Below are positions 1,764 through 64,000 of a stretch of 64,000 nucleotides of DNA, in pieces. Position 1 is the first letter of the stretch; every line of letters begins with the position of its first letter. The notes beneath the pieces were generated by a model. The model ran no database searches and was not told the origin of the DNA. It worked only from the letters and a program-made list of their open reading frames with translations. Source of the stretch: Candidatus Doudnabacteria bacterium (GTDB taxonomy: Bacteria > Patescibacteriota > Doudnabacteria > UBA920); assembly GCA_016788665.1 (NCBI GenBank), contig JAEUSF010000006.1, positions 4,401 through 68,400 of the forward strand, written 5' to 3'. The translations under genes were made by a program, and so were the position numbers.

Positions 1764-2768
1764 CTAATCACGCATTAGCCCTTTTGCTTTTTCCCAAAAT
1801 TCCGGATGGTTTTGCTTTTGCTTCATATAGTACCACCATTCTACTCCCCATAAATACTGAGGAGAAAGCCTTGTAGTTTCTGCAACGTCGAGTATTTTTT
1901 CAAACTTTTGCATACTCATGGTTTTAAACTGTTCTTCAACAGAAGTATTAAGTATGCCTTTAGTTGTCCATGGCTCTGCCTGTAGTTCAATTATAGCAAC
2001 TTGTTTACCCGGGTTCAAAAACCTCAAAAATCCCGCCTTAACTCTATAAACCCAAAACGGAATATAGTTAACCCAGTAACGGTTAAGCTTGTCGCTAAAT
2101 ACATATCTGTACAAAGTCGTACCAAATAAGTCGCCTCTCTTTCCGGAGCTTATCCACAGGGAAAGCTCTCCGCTGTCTGTAATTAACACCGGCCTTACGG
2201 GATCCAATTTTTTTACTAAAGCAATCTCACTGTCTAAAAGACCCGGATCTGGCTTCGGGCATTCGCCAAAGCTGGCTAGAAAAGGTTCGTTCTCAACCTG
2301 CCAAATTTCAACCGCCCGACTATTTTTATACCGCAAAACCACAGTTTCCACAAAAGACAATAAAGCATTTTTTAATTGCTGTTGATTTAAGTTTTTTATC
2401 CAAGCTGGGTCATGGCATTCCGGCCATCTGGGCAAACGCCTGCCTACAGACAAAACAATGCTGGTGTCTGTTTTTTCAGCTTCTGCAATCATATAATCCA
2501 AATCATCGAAATTAAAGTTCCCAGGTTCCGGCTCAACCTTATTCCAATAAGCGGAAAGCCGAACTTTTTTCACTCCCAAATCGCCCAGCATTTGTTTGTA
2601 GACTTCTTTCCAATCCAGTCCTAAATCCATAGCTTGAACCTGGCTAAAAGTTACCCCGTACTCAATTTGTTTGTGGGATCCTGAGTTTAAATACAGTAAA
2701 AATAATAAAACAAATAATACAAACAGCCCACTTAAAATTTTGTGATTTTTTATTAATTCAAAAAACAT
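1764..2768 (-). CDS. membrane-anchored glycoside hydrolase, clan GH-A (GH5/GH113-like TIM barrel)
   Basis: N-terminal TM helix; WNKVEPEPGNFNF and catalytic-type ENEP motif; family not assignable from sequence alone. Confidence 0.55.
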   Translation of the reverse strand: MFFELIKNHKILSGLFVLFVLLFLLYLNSGSHKQIEYGVTFSQVQAMDLGLDWKEVYKQMLGDLGVKKVRLSAYWNKVEPEPGNFNFDDLDYMIAEAEKTDTSIVLSVGRRLPRWPECHDPAWIKNLNQQQLKNALLSFVETVVLRYKNSRAVEIWQVENEPFLASFGECPKPDPGLLDSEIALVKKLDPVRPVLITDSGELSLWISSGKRGDLFGTTLYRYVFSDKLNRYWVNYIPFWVYRVKAGFLRFLNPGKQVAIIELQAEPWTTKGILNTSVEEQFKTMSMQKFEKILDVAETTRLSPQYLWGVEWWYYMKQKQNHPEFWEKAKGLMRD

Positions 2769-2891
2769 AAGTAAATGAAAGTGTTAAAATCAAAATGAAA
2801 AATAACAGTTTAAAATTTTAATTTTTTAATTCTGAATTGTCATTTTGATTTTTAATATTTAATCTTTACACTATAAAATCTAACTTATCTC

Positions 2892-15619: not shown

Positions 15620-16684
15620 CTATTTTCCAAACTGTCTAACCACCTCTTCTGCTTCGGAGAGGTTTTTAGTTTCCAATAATTTAGCTCTCAGCTCAGAGCT
15701 TCCCTCAAACCCAGTTGCATACGCTTTAAAATGCTTGCGCATAATATAAAAACTTTTTTTTCCACCCAACTTTTCTTCAAACAACTTTGCATGCTCCAGC
15801 ATTATTTTAAGCCTTTCCTCCGCTTGAGGCATATAGCCATCCGGCCGAAAAAGCCAAGGGGTGCCAAAAGCACCTCTGGCTATCATAACGCCGTCGCACC
15901 CAGTCTCCCGAACCCGCCTTAAACCTTCCTCTCGTGTTTTAACATCCCCATTACCTATTATTAAAGTTTTATCTGCTCTTTCTGCCTGCAGTGCATTTCT
16001 TACTTCCACAGCTTTTTTAATTTCTTCCCAGTGGGCAGGGACCTTACTTTTCTCTTGCTTAGTTCTAGCGTGCAAAGTTATAGCAGGTAAATTGTGCTTT
16101 AATAAATACCCAATCCAACTCTCCGTTTCCGGCTTAGTATAACCAATTCTGGTTTTTACGCTGACCGGCAAACTGCCCGCACCCTTTTGTGTAGCTTTTA
16201 TTATTTCACTAGCAAGTTTTGGGTTTCTTATAAGCGCAGCACATGCACCAATACCTATTTCCTTATCCTGCGGACAACCCATATTTATATCTATACCGTC
16301 AAAACCCATACCCGCGACCAACTGGGCCGCCTTATAAAATTTTTCAGGATTCGTCCCCCATAGTTGCACAACTATTGGCCTCTGGTTTTCTGTAAATTCC
16401 AAATCTATTTTAAGCTTTTCAAAACCCACCGGATGCAATAGCCCGTCAACATTTATAAACTCTGTAAACATAACGAAAGGATTGTTACGAGTTACGTGTG
16501 ACGAGTTACGTGTTACATGAGTACTATGCAATGCAAACATTTCACGGAACACAACGTCGGTAACTTCTTCCATAGGAGCAAGAGCAAATAAAGGCTTTTC
16601 CATTCCGGCCCAAAAACCAGGGTTTACGGGTCCTGTTTTGATGCGGAATATAGGAATTATAAAACGGCGCAAAAATTCGAACAT
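15620..16684 (-). CDS. tRNA-dihydrouridine synthase (Dus family)
   Basis: FALAPMEEVTD, VQLWGTNP, FDGIDINMGCP and catalytic-region motifs of the Dus TIM barrel; contains an in-frame heptad-repeat duplication (SHVTRN x2) at 16485-16518. Confidence 0.85.
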   Translation of the reverse strand: MFEFLRRFIIPIFRIKTGPVNPGFWAGMEKPLFALAPMEEVTDVVFREMFALHSTHVTRNSSHVTRNNPFVMFTEFINVDGLLHPVGFEKLKIDLEFTENQRPIVVQLWGTNPEKFYKAAQLVAGMGFDGIDINMGCPQDKEIGIGACAALIRNPKLASEIIKATQKGAGSLPVSVKTRIGYTKPETESWIGYLLKHNLPAITLHARTKQEKSKVPAHWEEIKKAVEVRNALQAERADKTLIIGNGDVKTREEGLRRVRETGCDGVMIARGAFGTPWLFRPDGYMPQAEERLKIMLEHAKLFEEKLGGKKSFYIMRKHFKAYATGFEGSSELRAKLLETKNLSEAEEVVRQFGK

Positions 16685-18090: not shown

Positions 18091-18149
18091 ATGTTTATAG
18101 TTATTAGTTATTATTTATAAAATATTTACAATCCATGAGCAAGCCAAAT

Positions 18150-19415: not shown

Positions 19416-19596
19416 CCTGAAAAGGCTACGACTTTCCGAAGACTAAACCCTTCGGCTTTTTATTTTTCATTCTTGTGTGTTTTGTGTTTTTGAAATTTGT
19501 CCTTTACGAAGAATCCAAAAAAAAGATAAAGGACGAACTACAAACTCCCCCTCGAGCTACTAGCTTCCGCCTACCAGCTACTAGCTAATTTGTAAA

Positions 19597-20178
19597 TCAT
19601 CCAAATAGAAATTTAGGCAAATAACTTACCATAGCTGCCATTTCCCGAAAATAATGAAAGACTAGCTCCCCTGGCTTATAGTAACTTGAAGTTTTAGGTG
19701 AGCTCCAATACACGTTTTTAAAACCTTGAGACTTAGCCATAAAAAAACCTCTAGCCAGATGGTAAGAATCGCTCACTACAATTATACTACTGGCCTTAGG
19801 CAACTTTTCTCTTGTGTTCTTTAAATTCTCATATGTACTACCCGAATGTTCTTCTAAAATAACATTAATGGGATTTTTAGAATTCTTGTCCATAACTCTT
19901 AACATATAAGTTGCTTCGGAAATATCTTTGTCGGAAATCCTCCCACCCGAAAGCACAACCACCGGGGCAAAACCTTCCTCGTACAGTCTTAGGGCTTCCA
20001 AGGTGCGGTTATAAAGCGCGGGAGTATTTATAGCGGCTCCAAGTATAACTATCGCGTCCGCTTTTTTTACATGAGGCGAGGTTAAGGCAAACCCAAAAAC
20101 CAGGCACGCATCTAGCAGAAAAGCGCCAACAAAAACAAATGCTCCTATTTTTACAGCTTTAAAAACTCGTCTTCTCAT
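19597..20178 (-). CDS. DUF218 (YdcF/SanA/ElyC-like) domain protein
   Basis: N-terminal TM anchor; DAIVILGAA...VVLSGG...SGSTYENL...IVVSDSYHLAR motifs of the DUF218 Rossmann-like family. Confidence 0.7.
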   Translation of the reverse strand: MRRRVFKAVKIGAFVFVGAFLLDACLVFGFALTSPHVKKADAIVILGAAINTPALYNRTLEALRLYEEGFAPVVVLSGGRISDKDISEATYMLRVMDKNSKNPINVILEEHSGSTYENLKNTREKLPKASSIIVVSDSYHLARGFFMAKSQGFKNVYWSSPKTSSYYKPGELVFHYFREMAAMVSYLPKFLFG

Positions 20179-26338: not shown

Positions 26339-26378
26339 GCAAAATACCTCAATACTAGCTAGTATTGAGGTATTTTGC
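26339..26378. repeat. 40-nt perfect palindrome GCAAAATACCTCAATACTAG|CTAGTATTGAGGTATTTTGC (copy 1)
   Basis: Read directly; the second copy at 35078-35117 matches at 39 of 40 positions. Confidence 0.9.
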
Positions 26379-26744: not shown

Positions 26745-26983
26745 ATGTACACGACTTATATATTACAAAACCCTTTGGGAAAGCTTTATATAGGTTACTC
26801 CAGTAATCTTGATGTTCGGATTAGTTGGCATAATTCGGTAAATCAAAATTTACCAGAAATAAAGGTCCATGGAAGTTGTTTTATAGTAAAGAATTTCTGA
26901 CAAAATCTGAAGCTATCAAATACGAATATTATCTTAAATCTTTAAAAAGTCCGGAGTATATTAAAAAACTTATTGTGAAATAA
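26745..26983 (+). pseudogene. GIY-YIG nuclease gene with a 1-nt frameshift
   Basis: MYTTYILQNPLGKLYIGYSSNLDVRISWHNS then, after a single-base frame change at about 26833-26837, GKSKFTRNKGPWKLFYSKEFLTKSEAIKYEYYLKSLKSPEYIKKLIVK*; the joined product is a canonical about 80-aa GIY-YIG protein; AAGGAG SD at 26730. Confidence 0.75.
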
Positions 26984-27098
26984 TTTTTTCCTTTCACCTT
27001 CATTGGGGTGTCGCCAAGTGGTAAGGCAGGGGCCTTTGAAGCCCCCATTCGTAGGTTCGAATCCTACCACCCCAGCCAGGTGAAAGGAAAAAATTATT
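26979..27098. repeat. 20-bp perfect inverted repeat enclosing tRNA-Gln
   Basis: AATAATTTTTTCCTTTCACC (26979-26998) is the exact reverse complement of GGTGAAAGGAAAAAATTATT (27079-27098); the tRNA sits in the 80-nt loop. Confidence 0.9.
27004..27078 (+). tRNA. tRNA-Gln (anticodon UUG)
   Basis: Acceptor TGGGGTG/CACCCCA with U1-A72 as in bacterial tRNA-Gln, D arm GCC..GGC, anticodon stem GGGGC/GCCCC with loop CTTTGAA, T arm GTAGG-TTCGAAT-CCTAC, discriminator G, encoded CCA. Confidence 0.8.
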
Positions 27099-27110
27099 TT
27101 ATAATAGTAA

Positions 27111-34182: not shown

Positions 34183-34315
34183 ATTAAACGAGTAATACAA
34201 ACCAAATAGCCGCTTACCAATCTTCCCTGGGAAGATTTTTTATTTAATTACTTCTTAAGTTTTTTTAGCTATGGTGTACTTAGTCAATAAAATTTTAAAC
34301 TAATTGCACAAACTT

Positions 34316-35035
34316 ATGCCACAAAATTACAAGAAAGACTTAAGTCCGCCCAAAAAAACACTAACCCAACAACAGCTCGAACTTATTCGTAATACCGTAG
34401 CCAAAGGTGCCACGCCTGACGAGCTAAAACTGTTTTTAATAGTAGCCAACAGAGCCGGTCTCGACCCTTTTACAAGACAAATACACTTTGTAAAGAGGGG
34501 TGGCAGAGCCACAGTACAGACTGGTATAGACGGCTATAGAGCCATAGCAGAAAGAAGCGGGAGCCTGGCGGGCATAGAAGACGCATTATACGACGCCGAA
34601 GACCAAGTCCACCCGAACAAAGCCACGGTGACAGTTTATAGAATGGTGAGTGGGCAAAGAGTTCCGTTTAGTGCTTCTGCCAGATGGGATGAATACGTGC
34701 CCCAAAGCGGACAAGACTTTATGTGGCGGAAAATGCCCTACTTTATGCTCGGTAAAGTTGCGGAAGCATTAGCTTTAAGAAAAGCATTCCCAAACGACTT
34801 AAGCGGACTTTACATTCACGAGGAAATGCAACGTGACGACAACAGTACGGAAAATGATTCAGAAGCGCTAATAAATCACAACAGCACCTCTCAAGAAAAA
34901 GAAAGTTCTTTAGACCCCACATTAACTGCCGCAAAAGATTACTCAAAAAAATTCTGGTCCCGCGCCGAACAACAAACACCTGCCTCAGAAAAACAAGCGC
35001 CTGTTTACCAAAAAGAAGCACTAGACGAGCCCTAA
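34316..35035 (+). CDS. recT: RecT/Bet-family phage single-strand annealing recombinase
   Basis: LTQQQLELIRNTVAKGATPDELKLFLIVANRAGLDPFTRQIHFVKRGGRATVQTGIDGYRAIAERSG is a textbook RecT (PF03837) core; track start is TTG, ATG at 34316. Confidence 0.8.
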   Translation: MPQNYKKDLSPPKKTLTQQQLELIRNTVAKGATPDELKLFLIVANRAGLDPFTRQIHFVKRGGRATVQTGIDGYRAIAERSGSLAGIEDALYDAEDQVHPNKATVTVYRMVSGQRVPFSASARWDEYVPQSGQDFMWRKMPYFMLGKVAEALALRKAFPNDLSGLYIHEEMQRDDNSTENDSEALINHNSTSQEKESSLDPTLTAAKDYSKKFWSRAEQQTPASEKQAPVYQKEALDEP

Positions 35036-35077
35036 AAAAAGCTTGTAAAGAGTAAGGGTTAACAAAACAACAAAGCA

Positions 35078-35117
35078 GCAAAATACCTCAATACTAGCTA
35101 GTATTAAGGTATTTTGC
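35078..35117. repeat. 40-nt palindrome, copy 2 (39 of 40 palindromic)
   Basis: GCAAAATACCTCAATACTAGCTAGTATTAAGGTATTTTGC; the single mismatch is at 35106. Confidence 0.9.
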
Positions 35118-35177
35118 TAAATAACACGCAGTGACAGACTAATGGATACATGCTAAAATTCTCTGCAAGGAGGCCGC

Positions 35178-44690: not shown

Positions 44691-46103
44691 TTACACCTCC
44701 TTAACCCTTCCAAACCCCACACTGTCCCTAAATACCTTCCCCGCCTTAAGCACAGGGGTATAAGAAACCGTAAATTTGCCATATTTAGCATTTATAACAT
44801 CTATAGCTATCATAAGAGCGCCTTTAGATGTATGCTTTTTAAACAAAGCCTGTTGAAACACATAAGGCTTTAAATTATCCACAGTAACCCCCACTAGCTT
44901 ACAATTAGCAATAACTTTTTCTGCTTCGAGAAAATTTCTCAAAATTTTCCGGCTTTCACAAAACAAGTCCCTTGCATCAAAAATAGGTTCACCCAAAGTT
45001 ACAGAGTTGCCATAAGAGTTATACTCTCCATCTCTTACATAAGCAACCAAAACATTACCCCACAGCTTCTTCCGCCTAAGCCTTTCAGCCACCATTTCGC
45101 AAAGCTTATACAAAACCGGTTCAAAAAAATCCCGGCCCCTATACTCTTTAGGTAAGGTATACATATGACCAATGGACTTAATAGTTTGGTCATGATGAAC
45201 TTTGGACTTCCAGCTACCATCTAATTTACCCATATGGTGAAGATGATACCCGCTTATACCAAACACTCTCACAAGTCGGCTTAAAGGAAAATCTCGCAAA
45301 TCTTTTAAAGTCCTAATCCCCAACTCATTAAGCCTCTTCTCCTGCCTCCTAGCTATTCCAGGAATATCAGTAAGTTTAAGTTTTTCATATAAATCTTCTT
45401 TAGTAAAATTTAAGAATTTAGAATGACAAATGCAGAATACAGAATTTTTACAAAAACATTCTAAATTCTTAATTCTCAATTCTGCATTACTTATAATTAC
45501 CAACCCATCAGGTTTCTGCATATCACTGGCTATTTTAGCCAAAAGTTTATTGTCCGCAACCCCAATACCGCAGGTTAAATAGTCTCCCACCTCTCTTTTT
45601 ATTCTCTGCTTTATTTCCCAAGCCACCCTCACGGCCTCTTCAAATGGATTAACTGATAGATAATAATCCAACTTTGCCTTATGGAAGTATTTTAGTTGAT
45701 CATTTTTAGATTTTGTAATTTGTATTATTTTTTGAAACTTGTAATTTGGAATTTGTAATTTAATATTACAGCTTGCTGTAATGTCTACGTACGCTTCATC
45801 TATACTTGCAGGCTCAACAAAACTACTATAGTCCCTTAAAACTTTTAAAAACAATCGGTGATAATGCCTATAAGCTTCTGCCCTGGTGTGGGTTAAAATA
45901 ATTTTAGGATAAAGCTTTTTAGCCTCCCACACAGGTGTACCGGTTTTTATACCCCAACGTTTTGCCTCTATACTTGCAGCTATTATTATGCCACCTAAAT
46001 GCTCGCACACACCTAAAGGCTTGCCTCGCCACAACAAATTATCCTGTTGTTCAACCGAAGCAAAATAACTATTCATATCCAAATGAAGAATAACGGGGGT
46101 CAT
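44691..46103 (-). CDS. dinB: DNA polymerase IV (Y-family, DinB)
   Basis: ILHLDMNSYFASVEQ, catalytic SIDEAYVDIT, little-finger domain; contains an in-frame heptad-repeat-derived insertion (LQIPNYKFQKIIQITKS) at 45711-45775. Confidence 0.85.
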   Translation of the reverse strand: MTPVILHLDMNSYFASVEQQDNLLWRGKPLGVCEHLGGIIIAASIEAKRWGIKTGTPVWEAKKLYPKIILTHTRAEAYRHYHRLFLKVLRDYSSFVEPASIDEAYVDITASCNIKLQIPNYKFQKIIQITKSKNDQLKYFHKAKLDYYLSVNPFEEAVRVAWEIKQRIKREVGDYLTCGIGVADNKLLAKIASDMQKPDGLVIISNAELRIKNLECFCKNSVFCICHSKFLNFTKEDLYEKLKLTDIPGIARRQEKRLNELGIRTLKDLRDFPLSRLVRVFGISGYHLHHMGKLDGSWKSKVHHDQTIKSIGHMYTLPKEYRGRDFFEPVLYKLCEMVAERLRRKKLWGNVLVAYVRDGEYNSYGNSVTLGEPIFDARDLFCESRKILRNFLEAEKVIANCKLVGVTVDNLKPYVFQQALFKKHTSKGALMIAIDVINAKYGKFTVSYTPVLKAGKVFRDSVGFGRVKEV

Positions 46104-46106
46104 AGG

Positions 46107-46155
46107 AGTAGTGAGTAGTGAGTAGTGAGTAGTGAGTAGTGAGTAGTGAGTAGTG
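46107..46155. repeat. (AGTAGTG)x7 perfect heptanucleotide tandem array abutting the dinB start codon
   Basis: Counted directly: seven exact copies 46107-46155, immediately 5' of the ATG at 46103 (minus strand). Confidence 0.95.
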
Positions 46156-46212
46156 CTACGGATCCCGTTACTACCGTCAACTACCCGCTACTTATTACCT
46201 GCTTTTTTAGCT

Positions 46213-46261
46213 AAACGTTCGTTCACCTTGTTATTTTATGACTATAATAAAAATTGTGCAA
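46213..46261 (-). promoter_or_regulatory. dinB promoter (TTGCAC-17-TAAAAT) with a GAACGAACGTTT LexA-box candidate just downstream of the -10
   Basis: Minus strand -35 at 46261-46256, -10 at 46238-46233, box at 46224-46213; same ACGAACGT core as upstream of lexA. Confidence 0.45.
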
Positions 46262-46390
46262 ATCAAAAAAACCACATTCACCATATAACAAAAAAGCCTA
46301 TTTTAAAAACAAGCGATTGTCTTCAAAAAAGGTCTTTAAATATGCTATTAATACTGGGCTTACTGCTTTATATGCTCTCTCAAGCATTAT

Positions 46391-58093: not shown

Positions 58094-58128
58094 TATTTGA
58101 AATTTGTTATTTGTTATTTGGAATTTTT
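58094..58128. repeat. heptad array TATTTGA-AATTTGT-TATTTGT-TATTTGG-AATTTTT overlapping the tkt C-subunit stop, upstream of the pfkB-family gene
   Basis: Read directly. Confidence 0.8.
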
Positions 58129-59094
58129 TCTAGATATTACTTTTCTGATAGCAGCTTTTATTGACTTAATTCCCATACAATACTTTTCTATTAACTCCTC
58201 AGGCTGACCAGACTCTCCAAATGAATTAGGCATGCCTACCATTTCAACCGGCACAGGAAAATTTTGGGCCAATACTTCACACACAGCGCTACCACACCCA
58301 GCCATCGTTTGATGCTCTTCCACAGTTACCACGGCCTTACATTTTTTCGCAGCTTCAATAATTGTTTCCGAATCTATAGGCTTTATTGTGTGGTTATTTA
58401 TAACCATGCAACTTACGTTTTCCTTTTCCATTTCCGCCGCAGCAACCAGCGCATTGTAAAGCACTGGCCCGCTCCCAATAATTACCACATCCGAACCGTC
58501 CTTGAAAACCTCAGCTTTTCCTACAGTAAATGAAGAACTGTTTGTCGTAATAATTGGCGTCTTAGAACGACCGAGACGAAAGTAAGCTGGACCGGCCATC
58601 TTTCCCAAAGCAACCGTTGCTTTTCTGGCTTCCAGGGCATCACAAGGCACAACAACAGTCAAATTGGGCAACACTCGGGTAATAGCAACATCTTCTAAAG
58701 CTTGATGAGTGGCTCCATCGGGCCCAACCGTAACACCTGTATGAGCTCCAGCTATTTTTACATTTGCCATACTATAACAAACACTTACCCTTAATTGGTC
58801 CCAATTCCGTCCCGGGGAAAAAGTAGCGTAAGAAGAAACAAATGGCACTTTACCATATAAAGCCAGACCTGCTGCAACACCCATCATGTTCTGCTCAGCT
58901 ACACCGCATTCCACAAACCTTTCGGGATACTTTTTAGCAAAATCTAATACCATAGTGCTTTCAGCCAAGTCAGCCGTTAAAACTACAACATTTTCATCTA
59001 TTGCTGCCAAATCTAAAAGCCCTAAGCCGTAACCTTTGCGCGTTGGCTCTTGCTCAATATCACTATTTCCAATTTTGGGATTCAAATAAGTCAT
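58114..59094 (-). CDS. transketolase, C-terminal (pyrimidine-binding plus C-terminal) subunit
   Basis: Split-transketolase C half with conserved Pyr-domain motifs. Confidence 0.85.
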   Translation of the reverse strand: MTYLNPKIGNSDIEQEPTRKGYGLGLLDLAAIDENVVVLTADLAESTMVLDFAKKYPERFVECGVAEQNMMGVAAGLALYGKVPFVSSYATFSPGRNWDQLRVSVCYSMANVKIAGAHTGVTVGPDGATHQALEDVAITRVLPNLTVVVPCDALEARKATVALGKMAGPAYFRLGRSKTPIITTNSSSFTVGKAEVFKDGSDVVIIGSGPVLYNALVAAAEMEKENVSCMVINNHTIKPIDSETIIEAAKKCKAVVTVEEHQTMAGCGSAVCEVLAQNFPVPVEMVGMPNSFGESGQPEELIEKYCMGIKSIKAAIRKVISRKNSK

Positions 59095-59336
59095 TTCCTT
59101 TTATATTGATTTTCTCCTGTCACCATTTTACGTCTCACCACCATCTGCCTATTAAACTCAGGCTCCTTTAAACCATACCCTTCTGCTAATATCAAATAAT
59201 CCACCCGTGAATTGCATTGTCTTAACTCTTCTTCTAATTTGGTCAAAGCCTCTTCGGGTTCTTTTGCTCTTGCAGAAACCCACTCGACTATAATACTTTC
59301 TGCGTACGAGCTATTAAAATTTTCTTCTTCAGTCAT
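59091..59336 (-). CDS. small acidic hypothetical protein between the two tkt halves
   Basis: 81 aa; overlaps tktC by ATGA; no family recognised. Confidence 0.35.
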   Translation of the reverse strand: MTEEENFNSSYAESIIVEWVSARAKEPEEALTKLEEELRQCNSRVDYLILAEGYGLKEPEFNRQMVVRRKMVTGENQYKRK

Positions 59337-59380
59337 AATTCCTAATTCCTAATTCTAAATCTTACATCTTACATCTTACA
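59337..59380. repeat. two adjacent heptad arrays, (AATTCCT)x2.5 then (ATCTTAC)x3, filling the intergenic gap between the tkt N-subunit stop and the small ORF start
   Basis: Read directly. Confidence 0.9.
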
Positions 59381-60232
59381 TTACTTATGCTCGCTATCTA
59401 TCTGACCTCTTAAAGTCCTTAATTCCTCTAGAGCTACTTTTGCCTGCTCCTTATTTGGCGGACTACCGTGCCATTTAAAATCACCTTCCATAAAATCCAC
59501 GCCCTTCCCAGGTATAGTATGCGCAATTATCACCGTTGGTTTTTCATAAATGGCTTTTGCTTCCATACATGCGTTTATAATAGCTTGATGATTATGTCCA
59601 TCCACCTCCAAAACATGCCAATTAAAAGCTTCGTATTTGGCTTTTAAATTATCTAAAGGCATAACATCCTCTGTGTAACCGTCTATTTGTATATTATTGC
59701 GATCAATTATTGCCGTAAGATTATGAAGTTTGTACTTTCCTGCAAACATAATCGCTTCCCAAACCTGACCTTCCTGCTGCTCGCCGTCAGACATAATTAA
59801 ATAAACCCTCTGAGACTTTTTTCTGTCCATATAAAGTCCGTAGGCCATACCAACCGCCTGACTTGCTCCTTGTGCTAAGGGTCCTGAAGAAGTTTCTATC
59901 CCAGGCAAGCTTAAATTATGCGGGTGGCCGTGCAAACGGGTTCCAAATTTTCTTAAAGTTTTAAGTTCATCTTTCATAAAATAACCTGCCTCCGCCAAAC
60001 TTGCATATAAAACGGGACATATATGCCCACACGACAAAACTAACCTATCACGTTCTTCTAGCTTGGGTCTTTTTGGGTCATGATTCAGGACACTAAAATA
60101 CAAACAAGCAAAAATATCGGCCATACCTAAAGGCCCGGCACTATGTCCGCTACCTGCTTCTAAAAGCATTTGCACTATATCTTGCCGTATATCGTTGGCT
60201 TTGTATTTTATTTCGTTTATAGATAACTTCAT
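59381..60232 (-). CDS. transketolase, N-terminal (TPP-binding) subunit
   Basis: GSGHSAGPLGMADI..., GDG-type TPP/metal-binding region. Confidence 0.85.
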   Translation of the reverse strand: MKLSINEIKYKANDIRQDIVQMLLEAGSGHSAGPLGMADIFACLYFSVLNHDPKRPKLEERDRLVLSCGHICPVLYASLAEAGYFMKDELKTLRKFGTRLHGHPHNLSLPGIETSSGPLAQGASQAVGMAYGLYMDRKKSQRVYLIMSDGEQQEGQVWEAIMFAGKYKLHNLTAIIDRNNIQIDGYTEDVMPLDNLKAKYEAFNWHVLEVDGHNHQAIINACMEAKAIYEKPTVIIAHTIPGKGVDFMEGDFKWHGSPPNKEQAKVALEELRTLRGQIDSEHK

Positions 60233-60846: not shown

Positions 60847-61482
60847 TTAATTGGCATTCAACTTTTCAAAAGCCTCTTTTGGGTTTTCAGTTTTTACAAT
60901 AGCACTACCCACAACAATTAAATCTGCACCTGCCTCTTTTATACTTTTTATATTAGTTTCATTGACGCCACCGTCTATTTCTATTATAGCATGCGGCAGT
61001 AAAGCTTTAAGCTCTTTGATTCGTTCGAGAGTTTCCGGAAAAAAAGGAGAGCCTTGAAACCCAGGCTTAATTCCCATTAACTGAAAATTTTTCAAAAATA
61101 CGTAATCCGTCAAATATGACACAGGAGTGTCTAAATTCAAACAAACAGCAGGCTCTAACCCTAAATCTTGAATTTGCTTTAGGGCTTGGGTTAATAAATT
61201 CTTATTGGAATAAGCCTCATAATGCAAAACTACCTTTTTGAATCCACAAATCTTGTAATCTAAAAAATCTTTAGGCTCTTCGCACATAATATGAGCTTCC
61301 CAAATAAAGGCAGGATTTAACGCATCAATTTCAGCTACGGGAAGTAAGGTGTTGGGAACAAATTTTCCATCAGCAAAGTCCACCTGGATTCTTTCGACAC
61401 CAGGAATTTTTGTAACCAAAGAAGAGGTGGCAGAAAATTTTTCTTTAGTTTGCTCTAAAATTGCCGGAATAATAATAGCCAT
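60847..61482 (-). CDS. rpe: ribulose-phosphate 3-epimerase
   Basis: VDFADGKFVPN, ..HIMCE.., IEIDGGVN TIM-barrel motifs. Confidence 0.85.
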   Translation of the reverse strand: MAIIIPAILEQTKEKFSATSSLVTKIPGVERIQVDFADGKFVPNTLLPVAEIDALNPAFIWEAHIMCEEPKDFLDYKICGFKKVVLHYEAYSNKNLLTQALKQIQDLGLEPAVCLNLDTPVSYLTDYVFLKNFQLMGIKPGFQGSPFFPETLERIKELKALLPHAIIEIDGGVNETNIKSIKEAGADLIVVGSAIVKTENPKEAFEKLNAN

Positions 61483-61487
61483 ATTTC

Positions 61488-61943
61488 CTAATTCCTATTT
61501 TCTAATTCTATAGAATTAATCTTTTCTATTCTCTTCACATGTCTGGCACCTTCAAAACCCGTCTCAATCCATAAATCCACAGCTCTCATAGCTTCTTCGG
61601 CTGTTATAAAATGCGCGCCCAAAGAAATCACATTAGCATTGTTATGCTGGCGAGAAAGCTTAACAACTTCCTCCGGACCTCCATAAAAGACCGCAGCTCT
61701 TACACCCTTTGCTTTATTAGCAACTACGGCTTCTCCCTGCCCGCTATAACCTATGACAATACCCATACTACCAGCTTTGTGCCCAACTTTTACCGCACAC
61801 GGATAAACAAAGTCAGGGTAATCGTCTTCGTGTTTGTATTCAAAAGGCCCGCAGTCTTCTACAGACTGCCCCGACGTCTTTAAATGGTCAATTAACTTGT
61901 TTTTCAATTCAAATCCTGCGTGGTCTGAGGCGATATAGATCAT
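61488..61943 (-). CDS. rpiB: ribose-5-phosphate isomerase B
   Basis: MIYIASDHAGFELK.., GIVIGYSGQG.., RpiB/LacAB family. Confidence 0.85.
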   Translation of the reverse strand: MIYIASDHAGFELKNKLIDHLKTSGQSVEDCGPFEYKHEDDYPDFVYPCAVKVGHKAGSMGIVIGYSGQGEAVVANKAKGVRAAVFYGGPEEVVKLSRQHNNANVISLGAHFITAEEAMRAVDLWIETGFEGARHVKRIEKINSIELENRN

Positions 61944-61997
61944 TTTAGCTATTAGCTAGTAGCAAGTAGCGTGTAGCACTGCTAGCTACTAGCTACT
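61944..61997. repeat. heptad array TTTAGCT-ATTAGCT-AGTAGCA-AGTAGCG-TGTAGCA followed by inverted copy GCTAGCTACTAGCTACT, abutting the rpiB start
   Basis: Read directly; AGTAGC units are related to the AGTAGTR family. Confidence 0.85.
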
Positions 61998-62006
61998 CCC
62001 TACAAA

Positions 62007-62690
62007 CTATAGATTAATAATTTTATTAAAATAACTTGGAACCAAGCTGGCACCACCCACCAATAAACCATCCACATTCCTTTGTGCCAAGAACCCTTGG
62101 GCATTACTTGGGTTAACACTACCTCCATAAAGAACTTTTTCTACACCATAGCGGTTTTTTATAAACAAAGCAATTTTTTCAGTATGATCTGGCGTAGCCG
62201 TTTTACCACTCCCAATTGCCCATACCGGTTCATACGCAACCACAACTTTTTCGGCCTCCAGCCCTGCCAAACCTAAGTCTAACTGATTTTTTATAATATC
62301 GGTCACCTCCATGTCGTCCTGCAAAACAGTTGTTTTGTACCCAACACATAAAACAGGAACAATATTGTTCGCCAAAGCAAGCCTAATCTTGGCGTTTACC
62401 ATATGATCATCATCACCCGCAAAACGTCTTTCACTATGCCCAACCAAAACATACTTAATTTTAAAATTTTTAAGTTGTAAGGGGCTGACCTGCCCGGTGA
62501 AAGCACCTTTCTCTTCCCAAAAACAATCTTGCGCACCTAAATTTGGATACTTCACCGAAGACAAAAAGACATGAGGCGGACACAATACCACAGTATTTTT
62601 TTTTGTCTTTTCTATTAAAGAAGTAAGCTTAACAGCTTCTTTTAAACTTACCGGATTTAATTTCCAATTTCCAATTATTAATTTTTTCAT
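62007..62690 (-). CDS. tpiA: triosephosphate isomerase
   Basis: IIGNWKLN, catalytic VGHSERR and AYEPVWAIGSG motifs. Confidence 0.9.
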   Translation of the reverse strand: MKKLIIGNWKLNPVSLKEAVKLTSLIEKTKKNTVVLCPPHVFLSSVKYPNLGAQDCFWEEKGAFTGQVSPLQLKNFKIKYVLVGHSERRFAGDDDHMVNAKIRLALANNIVPVLCVGYKTTVLQDDMEVTDIIKNQLDLGLAGLEAEKVVVAYEPVWAIGSGKTATPDHTEKIALFIKNRYGVEKVLYGGSVNPSNAQGFLAQRNVDGLLVGGASLVPSYFNKIINL

Positions 62691-62785: not shown

Positions 62786-62820
62786 CTTACTTCTTACTTC
62801 CTAATTCTTCATTTACCTAA
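62786..62820. repeat. heptad array CTTACTT-CTTACTT-CCTAATT-CTTCATT-TACCTAA overlapping the galT stop codon
   Basis: Read directly. Confidence 0.85.
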
Positions 62821-63827
62821 TCCCCTCTCAAAAACTTTGCAGTTACTTCAGGCGGTATGGGGTTAACAGGAATCCCTGTCGCATACTCAAAACCTGCCCA
62901 TGTGGTAATACGAGGAAATATAGTCAAATGCCACCTGAAAGCCTGTTCATTATAAGTCTTACTCTCTTTTCTTAGAGGCATATTGTGAACATAAAAATTC
63001 AAAGGTGGATCTGAAAGTTTTGTATACAGCTGTCCCAAAGTCACCTTTAAAACAAAGGATAAATGTTTTATTTCATCTTCCGTCATATCTTCAAACCTGG
63101 CTGACTGCCTTTTTGGAATTATCCAAGTTTCAAACGGCTGACGCGAAGCATAAGCAGACAAAATAACAAAATGATCGCTCTCGTGCAAAATTCTATCTTT
63201 AACTTTTAATTCTTCCTTTAAAATATCTCCGTAAATATCCGTACCGTGAATACCGTAATAATGCTGACAGCCCATTATTTCGTTATGAATGTGGGGTGGC
63301 ACTATAGGGGTTGCTAAAAGTTGGTAGTGCGGATGCACAATCGAAGCGCCTGCGTCGCGCCCATGGTTATGAAATAACTGCACATAAGCCAATTCCCCAT
63401 GCCTCGAAAGCTCATTAATTCTTCTTATAAAAACTTTTAAAGTACTTTCGACTATTGAAATAGACTGCAGAGCAACAGGCTCGTTGTGTTTTCTTGTTAT
63501 TATAACTTCATGGTCTCCGTCACCCGAATGAGAAAAATAAAATTCTTTATGACTATAAGCAGTTGCGTGCTCTAAAGCCGCAAACTTATTAGGAATTATG
63601 CGAATCTCCCACTGATCAGATCTTAAATCGAGCAAATTTCCCTCCTGGTCAAACCTTTCTATTTCCGGATTTAGACTTTCATTACCAGGACAAAACACGC
63701 AAGTCTTATCATGCTCAGGTACACCATGCATTACGCTATATGTTTTGTACTCATCAGGCCTCTTATTCCTACCAGGAGCTATAAGCACCCAAGATTTGGT
63801 TATTGGATTTTGCCGAAATTCTGACAT
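62817..63827 (-). CDS. galT: galactose-1-phosphate uridylyltransferase (HIT superfamily)
   Basis: Zn-binding Cys/His N-terminal region and HPHYQ (HxHxQ-type) active-site motif. Confidence 0.7.
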   Translation of the reverse strand: MSEFRQNPITKSWVLIAPGRNKRPDEYKTYSVMHGVPEHDKTCVFCPGNESLNPEIERFDQEGNLLDLRSDQWEIRIIPNKFAALEHATAYSHKEFYFSHSGDGDHEVIITRKHNEPVALQSISIVESTLKVFIRRINELSRHGELAYVQLFHNHGRDAGASIVHPHYQLLATPIVPPHIHNEIMGCQHYYGIHGTDIYGDILKEELKVKDRILHESDHFVILSAYASRQPFETWIIPKRQSARFEDMTEDEIKHLSFVLKVTLGQLYTKLSDPPLNFYVHNMPLRKESKTYNEQAFRWHLTIFPRITTWAGFEYATGIPVNPIPPEVTAKFLRGD

Positions 63828-63830
63828 ATA

Positions 63831-63880
63831 AGTAGTAAGTAGTAAGTAGTAAGTAGTAAGTTTGATACCTACTACTTACT
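63831..63880. repeat. (AGTAGTA)x4 heptad array abutting the galT start, with inverted copy TACTACTTACTA (63868-63880) forming a potential hairpin over the ruvX stop
   Basis: Read directly. Confidence 0.9.
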
Positions 63881-64000
63881 ATTTATTTCTGTCTAAATAA
63901 TTTTGTAAAAATATTTGCGCCGCTAAACTATCAACTTGTTTTTTTCCACCAGGTAATTTTTTTGCCATGGAGGAGCTAAGTCTCTCGTCTTGCGTTTTAA
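63879..64000 (-). CDS. ruvX: Holliday-junction resolvase-like YqgF/RuvX, C-terminal fragment (gene start beyond window)
   Basis: Minus-strand ..MAKKLPGGKKQVDSLAAQIFLQNYLDRNK* resembles the RuvX C-terminus (..KKEVDSEAAVIILESY.. in E. coli, recalled from memory). Confidence 0.45.
   Translation of the reverse strand, partial: KTQDERLSSSMAKKLPGGKKQVDSLAAQIFLQNYLDRNK

Follow-up and report, generated by a model that had tools for sequence, protein, structure and literature searches.

Heptanucleotide-repeat hairpins that end at start codons in a Candidatus Doudnabacteria genome: a possible gate on translation initiation without Shine-Dalgarno sequences

Among the long simple repeats of prokaryotes those with a unit of seven nucleotides are the most frequent, as was recognised in 2007, and their function is hardly known; the class is mostly intergenic and an origin by slippage was proposed (Mrazek et al. 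2007, as summarised in PMC4679880). In Haemophilus influenzae the (ATCTTTC)n repeat in the 5' untranslated region (5'UTR) of hmw1A takes part in a long hairpin that RNase III cleaves and that determines expression (PMC12721329). TAACTGA direct repeats, in 2-6 copies a few nt upstream of starts, occur in marine Beggiatoaceae and in some Cyanobacteria and Bacteroidetes (MacGregor 2015, PMC4679880), and in Nostoc PCC 7120 heptamer repeats lie near starts and promoters and at LexA-regulated repair genes (bioRxiv 10.1101/2022.06.06.494920). Here we describe heptad arrays directly before the start codons of dinB, galT and rpiB in 64,000 nt of a metagenome-assembled genome of Candidatus Doudnabacteria bacterium, a member of the Patescibacteria (assembly GCA_016788665.1, contig JAEUSF010000006.1, positions 4,401 to 68,400; this whole stretch is called the window). 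The arrays had been pointed out in an earlier note made from the sequence; they proved to be arms of hairpins, and in relatives a repeat hairpin is found at the same positions.

The perfect array of seven AGTAGTG copies, which the note had placed before the dinB ATG, was found exactly at 46107-46155 of the plus strand, with a gap of 3 nt to the ATG; Tandem Repeats Finder (TRF) returned 46106-46155, period 7, 7.1 copies, 100% matches and a score of 100. Read on the minus strand, as the leader would be transcribed, the array is a G-free 3' arm, (CACUACU)x7 followed by CCU-AUG (46107..46155). The 5' arm (46156..46193, minus strand), defined from the sequence and from folds, reads AAGUAGC GGGUAGU UGACGGUAGU and contains a small inner hairpin, ACGGGAUCCGU; its GUAG units are complementary to the CACUACU units. 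In the minimum free energy fold (-29.3 kcal/mol, z -1.1) about three of the seven CACUACU units are paired, with three GUAG units (46193-46164) as their partners; some 20-28 nt of the G-free leader stay unpaired, and the perfect repetition of the 3' arm allows more than one pairing register. A GGATCC (BamHI) palindrome lies in the inner hairpin (window 46161-46166), with no sign of being more than chance.

The dinB gene itself (44691..46103, minus strand) codes for a DNA polymerase IV of 470 amino acids (aa), recognised by Pfam IMS and IMS_C and by 100% identity over 98% of its length with the NCBI protein 'DNA polymerase IV [Candidatus Doudnabacteria bacterium]'. The open reading frame (ORF) has its first start codon at ATG 46103-46101, which is taken as the true start since the catalytic N-terminus ILHLDMNSYF, of the form (I/V)(I/L)HLDMNSYF, lies between this ATG and the later Met used by NCBI. 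In the NCBI record (P0001) DinB begins at Met10 and the catalytic N-terminus is lost; in locus L002 (1107-1166; loci and contigs used for comparison carry L numbers) the dinB call begins at a TTG within a GTAG array, by which about 20 spurious residues are added. In both cases heptad repeats misled gene callers. Exact-protein look-ups of the window DinB, the window GalT and the NCBI DinB matched no contig, and a metagenome scan for the unique dinB flank with the first repeats (GGGGGTCATAGGAGTAGTGAGTAGTG) gave 0 matches.

The spacer between ruvX and galT has the same anatomy. The galT-like gene (62817..63827, minus strand; galactose-1-phosphate uridylyltransferase family, Pfam GalP_UDP_transf) is preceded by the array that the note had given as AGTAGTA, in the mRNA sense (CUUACUA)x4.7 (63829..63861, minus strand; TRF period 7, 4.7 copies, 100% matches), which forms the 3' arm of an intercistronic hairpin and ends 1 nt short of the AUG. 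The 5' arm (63866..63890, minus strand; AUAGUAAGUAGUAGGUA), located by inverted repeat and fold, includes the UAG stop (63879-63881) of a RuvX-like ORF, a gene identified as RuvX in relatives, and the stretch TACTACTTACTA at 63870-63881 is complementary to the array. The inverted-repeat arms, 63828-63848 and 63866-63886, are 90% complementary, and in the mRNA the hairpin would read AUAG-UAAGUAGUAGGU, a loop, and (CUUACUA)n-UAU-AUG, with a folding energy of -24.3 kcal/mol and z -4.7.

Before rpiB (61488..61943, minus strand; Pfam LacAB_rpiB) the AGTAGC units and the inverted copy described in the note form a degenerate GTAGC/GCTAC palindrome whose arms, 61943-61969 and 61979-62005, are 27 nt long and 78% complementary. 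From sequence and inverted repeat, the 5' arm (61979..62005, minus strand) reads UUGUAGG GAGUAGC UAGUAGC UAGCAG and begins 1 nt past the tpiA stop codon (62007-62009), and the 3' arm (61944..61969, minus strand) reads GCUACAC GCUACUU GCUACUA GCUAAUA GCUAAA-AUG. The fold (-28.8 kcal/mol, z -2.75) brings the 3' arm to 5-12 nt from the AUG. The folds at all three genes bear out the suggestion that the arrays pair with inverted copies. These copies had been called downstream, which holds on the plus strand; in the mRNA sense they lie 5' of the arrays. The unit that matters is the complete hairpin, which stretches from the stop codon or promoter up to the start codon, and not the array by itself.

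Most genes of the window have no Shine-Dalgarno (SD) sequence and an A/U-rich upstream region, while a minority carry AAGGAGG; as the note had stated, the arrays stand directly before the AUG of genes without SD and are pyrimidine-rich and G-free on the mRNA. Initiation that is independent of SD depends mainly on an unstructured start region, so that a stem reaching the AUG is expected to be inhibitory. The reading we favour, tentatively and at slightly less than even confidence, is that heptad-repeat hairpins made by slippage are transcribed and mask these SD-less start sites, gating translation and not acting as an on/off mutation switch.

According to this proposal the hairpins of dinB, galT and rpiB would be transcribed as drawn and would affect translation. 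In their anatomy, which the sequence shows, the 5' arm, (NNGUAGN)n, begins at or just after the upstream stop codon (that of ruvX for galT and of tpiA for rpiB) or, at dinB, a few tens of nt after the gene's own putative SOS-box promoter; after a short loop comes the G-free (NCUACNN)n run, ending 0-3 nt before the AUG. The hairpin would lower or condition initiation at the SD-less gene, and at dinB it would damp translation of the error-prone polymerase. In operon spacers a ribosome terminating at the stop in or next to the 5' arm could melt the stem and unmask the next AUG, which would amount to translational coupling. The unpaired surplus of the G-free array, about four of seven units at dinB, might serve as an open landing tract. 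The repeats would arise and change in size by slipped-strand mispairing, with a strong preference of the lineage for period 7, and the balance of units between the two arms would set the free part of the start region, as evolutionary tuning and not as a rapid on/off switch. The hairpins may also be processed by RNase III; among the loci compared from the related lineage, a sample too small to carry weight, neither RNase III nor Rho was found by motif.

The position of the dinB hairpin relative to a promoter was examined by comparison of orthologues. This revealed a box GTGAAC-GAAC-GTTT (GTGAACGAACGTTT; 46212..46225, minus strand), a putative LexA/SOS-type operator, next to a sigma-70-like promoter, TTTGCA-18-TAAAAT or TGCACA-16-TAAAAT (46233..46262, minus strand), which is a weak match (9/12). 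The consensus aGGTGAAC-N4-GTATACtATA was found upstream of dinB in 25 of 32 orthologues of the lineage (L135, L137, L144, L146 and L156, for example); TTGACA often stands 3 nt before the box, TTGACA-17-TACTAT spans the box region, and in L135 the box is a perfect palindrome, AGTGAACGATCGTTCACT. We take it to resemble the Gram-positive-type LexA (Cheo) box, GAAC-N4-GTTC, set in a sigma-70 promoter. This resemblance suggests an SOS regulon in these Patescibacteria, and together the promoter match and the conserved box upstream place the dinB hairpin in the 5'UTR. The distance from box to ATG is 123 nt in the window versus about 85-95 nt in typical dinB orthologues.

About 30 dinB loci were gathered from relatives, and 31 were folded (DinB 44-80% identical). 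Between box and ATG lie 50-100 nt, which in almost every case form a repeat-built hairpin, with repeats usually of 7 nt and a 3' arm that reaches or includes the ATG: the last paired base was at most 4 nt from the AUG or within it in 26 of the 31 orthologues, and 21 had a fold z of -2.0 or lower. The units belong to at least eight unrelated families and are wholly different between groups (UAAUUGA/UUAUCAA, UGACCUU/GGUCAAA, UUAACAA/UUAAUUG, AACCAUA/UAUGGUU, AGAUUAA/AUCUUUA, UUAUCCU/UAAGGAU, AUACUAG/CUAGUAU and GUAGC/GCUAC). Orthologues thus retain a hairpin in one place although the sequence that builds it is exchanged. In L146, L145 and L001 the 3' arm carries AAGGA units, so that an SD-like sequence and the AUG are both sequestered in the predicted structure; the 5' arm of L136 begins TAACTGA TAATTTA TAATTGA. 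The leader hairpin of L124 (5790-5960) is not heptad-based; it is a long palindrome, CGTCATTGCGAG...GAAGCAATC / GATTGCTTC...CTCGCAATGACG, whose motif is common in environmental genomes as a repeated palindromic element.

Complete turnover of the units between dinB orthologues would also be expected from the main rival explanation, in which the hairpins are a neutral or selfish by-product at the level of DNA. A mutational bias specific to the lineage, namely slipped-strand expansion of 7-bp units together with template switching that makes and repairs quasi-palindromes, would fill every unconstrained spacer with heptad arrays and their inverted copies; the arrays would adjoin start and stop codons only as the nearest constrained bases and would have no regulatory role. 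We regard such an origin as unlikely on balance, though to be taken seriously. Period 7 is the commonest class of long simple sequence repeat (SSR) in prokaryotes and has been ascribed to polymerase slippage (Mrazek et al. 2007, as summarised in PMC4679880), and surplus unpaired units are often present in one arm, seven versus about three in the window dinB and extra TTTGACC units in L140. Neutral palindromes should decay, however, and the persistence of a hairpin at the same site in dinB leaders, with DinB down to about 50% identity, and in tpiA-rpiB spacers counts against it.

The predicted accessibility of the start region also speaks against neutrality. Over positions -9 to +6 the mean unpaired probability was 0.39 in 32 dinB leaders, and 0.54 in the 215 further genes with an ATG start that these loci contain (Mann-Whitney p = 7e-6); for the AUG alone it was 0.25 versus 0.48 (p = 7e-7). 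In this contrast the dinB orthologues are phylogenetically non-independent, and crude start calls were used for the control genes. Predicted accessibility at the start is thus significantly lower in dinB than in neighbouring genes.

The spacers of the other two genes were compared in the same way. Between tpiA and rpiB a repeat hairpin ending at the ATG was found in four genomes with four different units: GUAGC/GCUAC in the window, GUUACGG/CUUGUAA in L209, CGCUGA/UCAGCG in L210 (period ~11) and AGUAG/CUUACUA in L213. The ruvX-galT spacer of L209 (GCA_964523855.1; GalT 93% identical) has the same length as that of the window. Its 28-nt CUACUUA array shows 0 changes, while about half of the positions of the 5'-arm and loop segment (alignment columns 41-69) and about 1 in 8 of the remaining flanks differ; the rebuilt 5' arm of L209 (UGUAGUGGG) is still able to pair with the invariant array. 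An array without change in 28 nt beside a segment with ~50% changes is hard to reconcile with neutral drift, and so is the recurrence of the CUUACUA unit before different genes: besides galT, rpiB of L213 and mreB of L123, L133 and L149 have the arrangement (CUUACUA)n-AUG.

An invariant array facing a diverged partner arm could also mean that the G-free (NCUACNN)n tract is itself a cis element, either a landing site for the ribosome, S1 or another RNA-binding factor or a target of a GUAG RNA acting in trans, that promotes or regulates SD-independent initiation, with the GUAG arm as an optional masking partner. CUAC-type arrays do stand before an AUG without a GUAG arm, before mreB in L123, before tkt in the rpe-tkt spacer of a Saccharibacteria metagenome-assembled genome (L078) and before tkt in L013, and a similar role was proposed for the TAACTGA repeats (PMC4679880) and for the Nostoc heptamers (bioRxiv 10.1101/2022.06.06.494920). 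Most dinB orthologues, however, have other units (UUAUCAA, GGUCAAA, UAUGGUU and more), so no single motif is required, and no candidate binding factor was identified; this explanation is improbable in our view. Pairing of the leader with the anti-SD was rejected, since the CUCCU at the end of the dinB leader is of the anti-SD's own sense and not complementary to it.

To see the arrays beyond this lineage, a scan for (GTAG-N3)x3-GTAG was made across phyla with one genome per species; the following figures are those of the matches listed (L003-L122). Among these are Acidobacteriota, Bacteroidota, Cyanobacteria, Verrucomicrobiota, Planctomycetota, Gemmatimonadota, Chloroflexota and several Patescibacteria. 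In many cases an inverted (CTAC-N3)n array comes after the GTAG array, so that a hairpin of the type described above results: an in-phase inverted partner lay downstream in 15 and upstream in 0 of the 139 arrays listed, and the strong GTAG-then-CTAC polarity rests on these cross-phylum arrays only. Unpartnered CTAC-sense arrays in this list lie near downstream starts (median 28 nt) and GTAG-sense ones at upstream stops (median 5 nt), as a start-proximal cis element would have it. At L008, L049, L091, L099, L103 and L119 the GTAG array is coupled with an unrelated second heptad array.

In the same list the median distance of GTAG arrays is 36 nt to a stop, with 30 of 110 at no more than 10 nt, and 92 nt to a start, and convergent spacers (32) contain them more often than divergent ones (12). 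This would fit terminators, attenuators or 3'-end stabilisers of the upstream gene, and some dinB leaders (L132, L148 and L144) end in a U run right before the ATG. Yet a scan showed no site resembling an intrinsic terminator at the dinB, galT and rpiB hairpins, whose stems continue into CACUACU or CUUACUA in place of a U run. The dinB hairpin comes after the putative promoter of dinB itself, at least 235 nt from the previous gene, and termination within the pentose-phosphate/glycolysis operon would cut off rpiB and galT. A function at the end of the upstream gene is thus most improbable, and intrinsic (Rho-independent) termination in particular was rejected, as a G+C-rich stem with a U run is missing at the three hairpins. 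A search of the whole window against Rfam gave only two tRNAs above the gathering score and no family at the arrays.

A bolder generalisation, which we consider quite unlikely, is that heptad hairpins act generally as an evolvable gate where one gene meets the next, in bacteria whose initiation is not dependent on SD pairing. A stop-rich (NNGUAGN)n arm at the upstream stop and a G-free (NCUACNN)n arm at the next AUG would then couple termination to re-initiation or set basal translation, with a strict 5'-GTAG...CTAC-3' polarity across phyla, and the gate would be created and retuned by 7-nt-biased slippage and template switching. If true, this would give a mechanistic function to the long-known and unexplained excess of heptanucleotides in prokaryotes, and in-frame hypervariable inserts such as those of DinB would be a spill-over of the same process.

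Within the window, a density scan for GTAG/CTAC over the 64 kb gave exactly three clusters, those of dinB, galT and rpiB. For arrays of period 7, 14 or 21, TRF found 23 that do not overlap, whereas 20 dinucleotide-preserving shuffles had 2.0 on average and never more than 4, an enrichment of about 10-fold that excludes chance; arrays of period 8-10 were near the shuffle level. Seventeen of the 23 are intergenic, though intergenic DNA makes up only about 17% of the window, and most adjoin a start or stop codon. Intergenic self-match at lags 7, 14 and 21 was 0.304, 0.301 and 0.299 versus ~0.285, and the signal remained without the three clusters. In the 42 nt upstream of starts of the window and six related loci the corresponding values were 0.346, 0.338 and 0.329 versus ~0.30, and the periodicity was also present downstream of stops. 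The lag-7 excess was +0.0156 in 37 kb of intergenic DNA of relatives (DinB at least 50% identical); 70 kb of distant lineages (DinB 31-38%) showed +0.004 and lacked a signal at lag 14, which indicates that the feature is lineage-specific. The heptad periodicity is non-random, and the three arrays, real as they are, are not special cases but the extreme of a lineage-wide pattern.

Heptads also occur inside the dinB ORF. DinB of this lineage, 423-510 aa long, has two hypervariable inserts, after CN(I/V) and after KPDGLVV (alignment columns 135-180 and 231-268), which differ between orthologues in length and sequence; in L127 they are encoded by (CAAAUAU)5.6 and (AGUGAGC)5.6. In the window, insert 1 corresponds to a degenerate UUACAAA-like array of 7.4 copies (45712..45761, minus strand; TRF and alignment). 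Insert 2 is a heptad-repeat hairpin (45410..45488, minus strand; inverted repeats, fold and alignment) with the units GCAGAAU UGAGAAU UAAGAAU UUAGAAU ... AUUCUGU AUUCUGC .. AUUCUAA AUUCUUA. Its arms, 45410-45425 and 45457-45472, are 16 nt long and 100% complementary, a second inverted repeat has 18 nt and 89% complementarity, and the fold has -20.7 kcal/mol. It is read in the sole frame that avoids the UGA, UAA and UAG of its units, giving NAELRIKNLECFCKNSVFCICHSKFLNF.

Several results weigh against a role of the hairpins in translation. The hairpins within the dinB ORF mean that the process which makes these elements acts regardless of leader function, and together with the presence of heptad arrays in many spacers of all kinds they agree with a neutral by-product. 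In 39 leader hairpins the sense and antisense strands folded equally well (23 vs 16, Wilcoxon p = 0.25; G-U pairs 106 vs 81), so there is no clear RNA-specific signature and the stems could be maintained at the DNA level. Column-wise covariation was minimal in the alignable leader sub-families (2/27 pairs and 0/19 pairs), again as neutrality would predict. The start region of the window dinB is comparatively open, with an unpaired probability of 0.67, a place at the open end of the range that follows from the expansion of its 3' arm; its promoter match is weak. When stems in contact with the start codon were simply counted, a crude measure, this lineage and distant ones came out alike, and accessibility from base-pair probabilities was used instead.

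The start-adjacent arrays of four other genes are likewise direct repeats without a hairpin, all found by TRF in the minus-strand sense. Two such arrays (59336..59381; UAA-GUAAUG UAAGAUG UAAGAUG UAAGAUU UAGAAUU AGGAAUU AGGAAUU-AUG) fill the spacer from the stop of the transketolase N-terminal gene to the AUG of an 81-aa ORF; another, UAGAAUU AGAAAAU AGGAAUU AGGAAAU-AUG (61482..61508), precedes the AUG of rpe. An AUAACUA-like array (18098..18118) lies 7 nt upstream of the rplL AUG, and (GUAACNC)x4-5 (16483..16513) about 12 nt upstream of the likely dus start.

The arrays had further been proposed in the note to vary in copy number in a phase-variation-like manner. As contingency loci, dinB, galT and rpiB would be switched or graded in expression by gain and loss of units within the population. 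Perfect tandem arrays (100% matches) are prone to slippage, a heptamer case is known in hmw (PMC12721329), and slippage is active in the lineage: contigs L127 and L128 of one assembly have 0 mismatches in 13.4 kb, and their sole difference, 40 nt, consists of five (AAGCATGT)n units of an 8-mer array (11.6 vs 6.6 copies; L127 12955-13047) about 26 nt upstream of the ATG of a SpoU methylase. The dinB array moreover has no counterpart in the closest relative found, L001, which has a UCAAGGA-type hairpin in its place, and is therefore recent.

Nevertheless, phase variation is not supported at galT, where both the array and the spacer length are unchanged in GCA_964523855.1, and what remains of the proposal is that slipped-strand mispairing operates in the lineage. 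Contigs with identical DinB or GalT had identical upstream regions, none of which has a perfect multi-copy array, and the indels in the near-identical contig pairs L177/L178, L196/L201 and L159/L160 were not repeat-related. Of the marks of contingency loci, the tandem simple repeat is present; a copy-number difference was not seen at galT, and the genes are housekeeping genes and not surface, virulence or restriction-modification genes. The arrays are also short, with 4-7 units versus at least eleven in natural hmw isolates according to a section heading of PMC12721329. We therefore hold phase variation at these genes to be very unlikely.

Other features of the window, which has a G+C content of about 0.36-0.43 and most of its genes on the minus strand, were recorded as well. 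Pfam identified dinB, the galT family, rpiB, tpiA, rplL and a split transketolase. An A/U-rich repeat hairpin with 44-nt arms (2775..2863, minus strand; inverted repeat) reaches with its 3' arm to at most 6 nt from the AUG of the gene 1764..2768. GUAG-type heptads, AGC-UAG-UAGCUGG UAGGCGG AAGCUAG UAGCUCG (19555..19595, minus strand; TRF), start from the stop of the DUF218 gene 19597..20178 and are without an inverted partner. Stop triplets were modestly enriched in the 5' arms of all local inverted repeats in relatives (338 vs 258, p = 0.002), with no such enrichment in the window. Transketolase is split into N- and C-terminal genes in the window (58114-60232), in L209 (14055-16163) and in L213 (11481-13011); between the halves lies a conserved ORF of 78-81 aa without a Pfam match, which overlaps the C-terminal gene by 4 nt.

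Two copies of one palindrome of about 40 nt (GCAAAATACCTCAATACTAG|CTAGTATTGAGGTATTTTGC; window 26339-26378 and 35077-35118) flank 8.7 kb with mostly plus-strand genes, G+C up to 0.52, a tRNA-Gln, a RecT gene (34304..35035) and ORFs without Pfam matches. This segment is probably an integrated mobile element or a prophage remnant. A 29-nt inverted repeat (93% complementary; 26971-26999 / 27078-27106) stands directly around the tRNA-Gln (27004-27078).

The interest of the three hairpins lies in a repeat-built structure kept in place while its sequence is replaced, in a genome-reduced, uncultured Patescibacterium. If the hairpins gate initiation or couple cistrons, they would represent a simple, evolvable layer of post-transcriptional control in a major and poorly understood branch of bacteria; gene-start annotation in such genomes should then take heptad hairpins into account, and heptad DNA would supply proteins with new segments, of which the two DinB inserts are examples. 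Our literature searches found no description of such heptad hairpins in the candidate phyla radiation, and the only dissected heptad-repeat case they found was a phase-variable adhesin of a pathogen.

Among known repeat families, REP/REPIN/BIME elements, including SMAG of Stenotrophomonas, are imperfect palindromes of intergenic DNA with a conserved GTAG at the 5' side; they frequently form inverted pairs, lie near gene ends and are transcribed in operons. REPs are unique sequences of 20-40 nt, repeated almost identically tens to hundreds of times, and are associated with a RAYT transposase. The arms described here are instead tandem heptads whose copies differ between loci; there are three or four GTAG/CTAC clusters of differing sequence in the 64 kb, the window galT spacer and the L213 rpiB spacer have the core AAGTAGTAGGTA in common, and no Y1 transposase (RAYT) was found among the 20 of ~75 window ORFs scanned against Pfam. 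HutP binds UAG-N4-UAG-N4-UAG, also of period 7, and the HutP/TRAP class recognises (N)AG triplets at fixed spacing. GUAG at 7-nt spacing occurs in the 5' arms (three in phase at rpiB, four in L002, two plus one out of phase at dinB); UAG units are not present in most orthologous dinB leaders. Cyanobacterial STRR heptamers with the units CCCCAGT and others were reportedly described by Mazel et al. in 1990. Rickettsia palindromic elements are palindromic DNA in frame in protein genes, where they form new variable protein segments. Borg tandem repeats (PMC9879509) do so as in-frame repeats of protein-coding genes. Both parallel the two DinB inserts only, and sequences, mechanisms and hosts differ.

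The TAACTGA repeats are similar in being start-proximal heptamers at genes without a canonical ribosome binding site, including essential genes, and a role in translation initiation was proposed for them (PMC4679880). In Beggiatoaceae, however, one unit dominates, related heptamers are rare and one indirect repeat was found among 170 sets (PMC4679880), whereas here many unrelated units occur (CACTACT, CTTACTA, GCTACNN, AGGAATT and others) and the inverted hairpin pair is typical. In Nostoc, deletion of heptamers changes reporter output and a genome-wide regulatory role was proposed; the unit there is TTTTGAA, the phylum is different and no conserved hairpin ending at the ATG was described (bioRxiv 10.1101/2022.06.06.494920). 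The work on long SSRs, as summarised in PMC4679880, is a statistical description, without the arrangement of stop, hairpin and start or its positional conservation across orthologues.

The closest likeness in architecture is to hmw1A/hmw2A (PMC12721329). There, as at dinB, a heptanucleotide repeat lies between promoter (here a promoter-like site) and start and is one arm of a long 5'UTR hairpin, which at dinB is a predicted fold that we infer to be transcribed; the hmw structure acts post-transcriptionally, and its repeat number is changed by slippage. The partner arm is a G-rich region in hmw and an inverted heptad array here. The hmw genes encode a phase-variable surface adhesin of a pathogen, with RNase III cleavage demonstrated, whereas dinB, galT and rpiB are housekeeping genes of an uncultured Patescibacterium in which the galT array is stable. 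What is new relative to hmw, the TAACTGA repeats and Nostoc is the combination of inverted heptad pairs, many different units and positional conservation at housekeeping and SOS genes in Patescibacteria.

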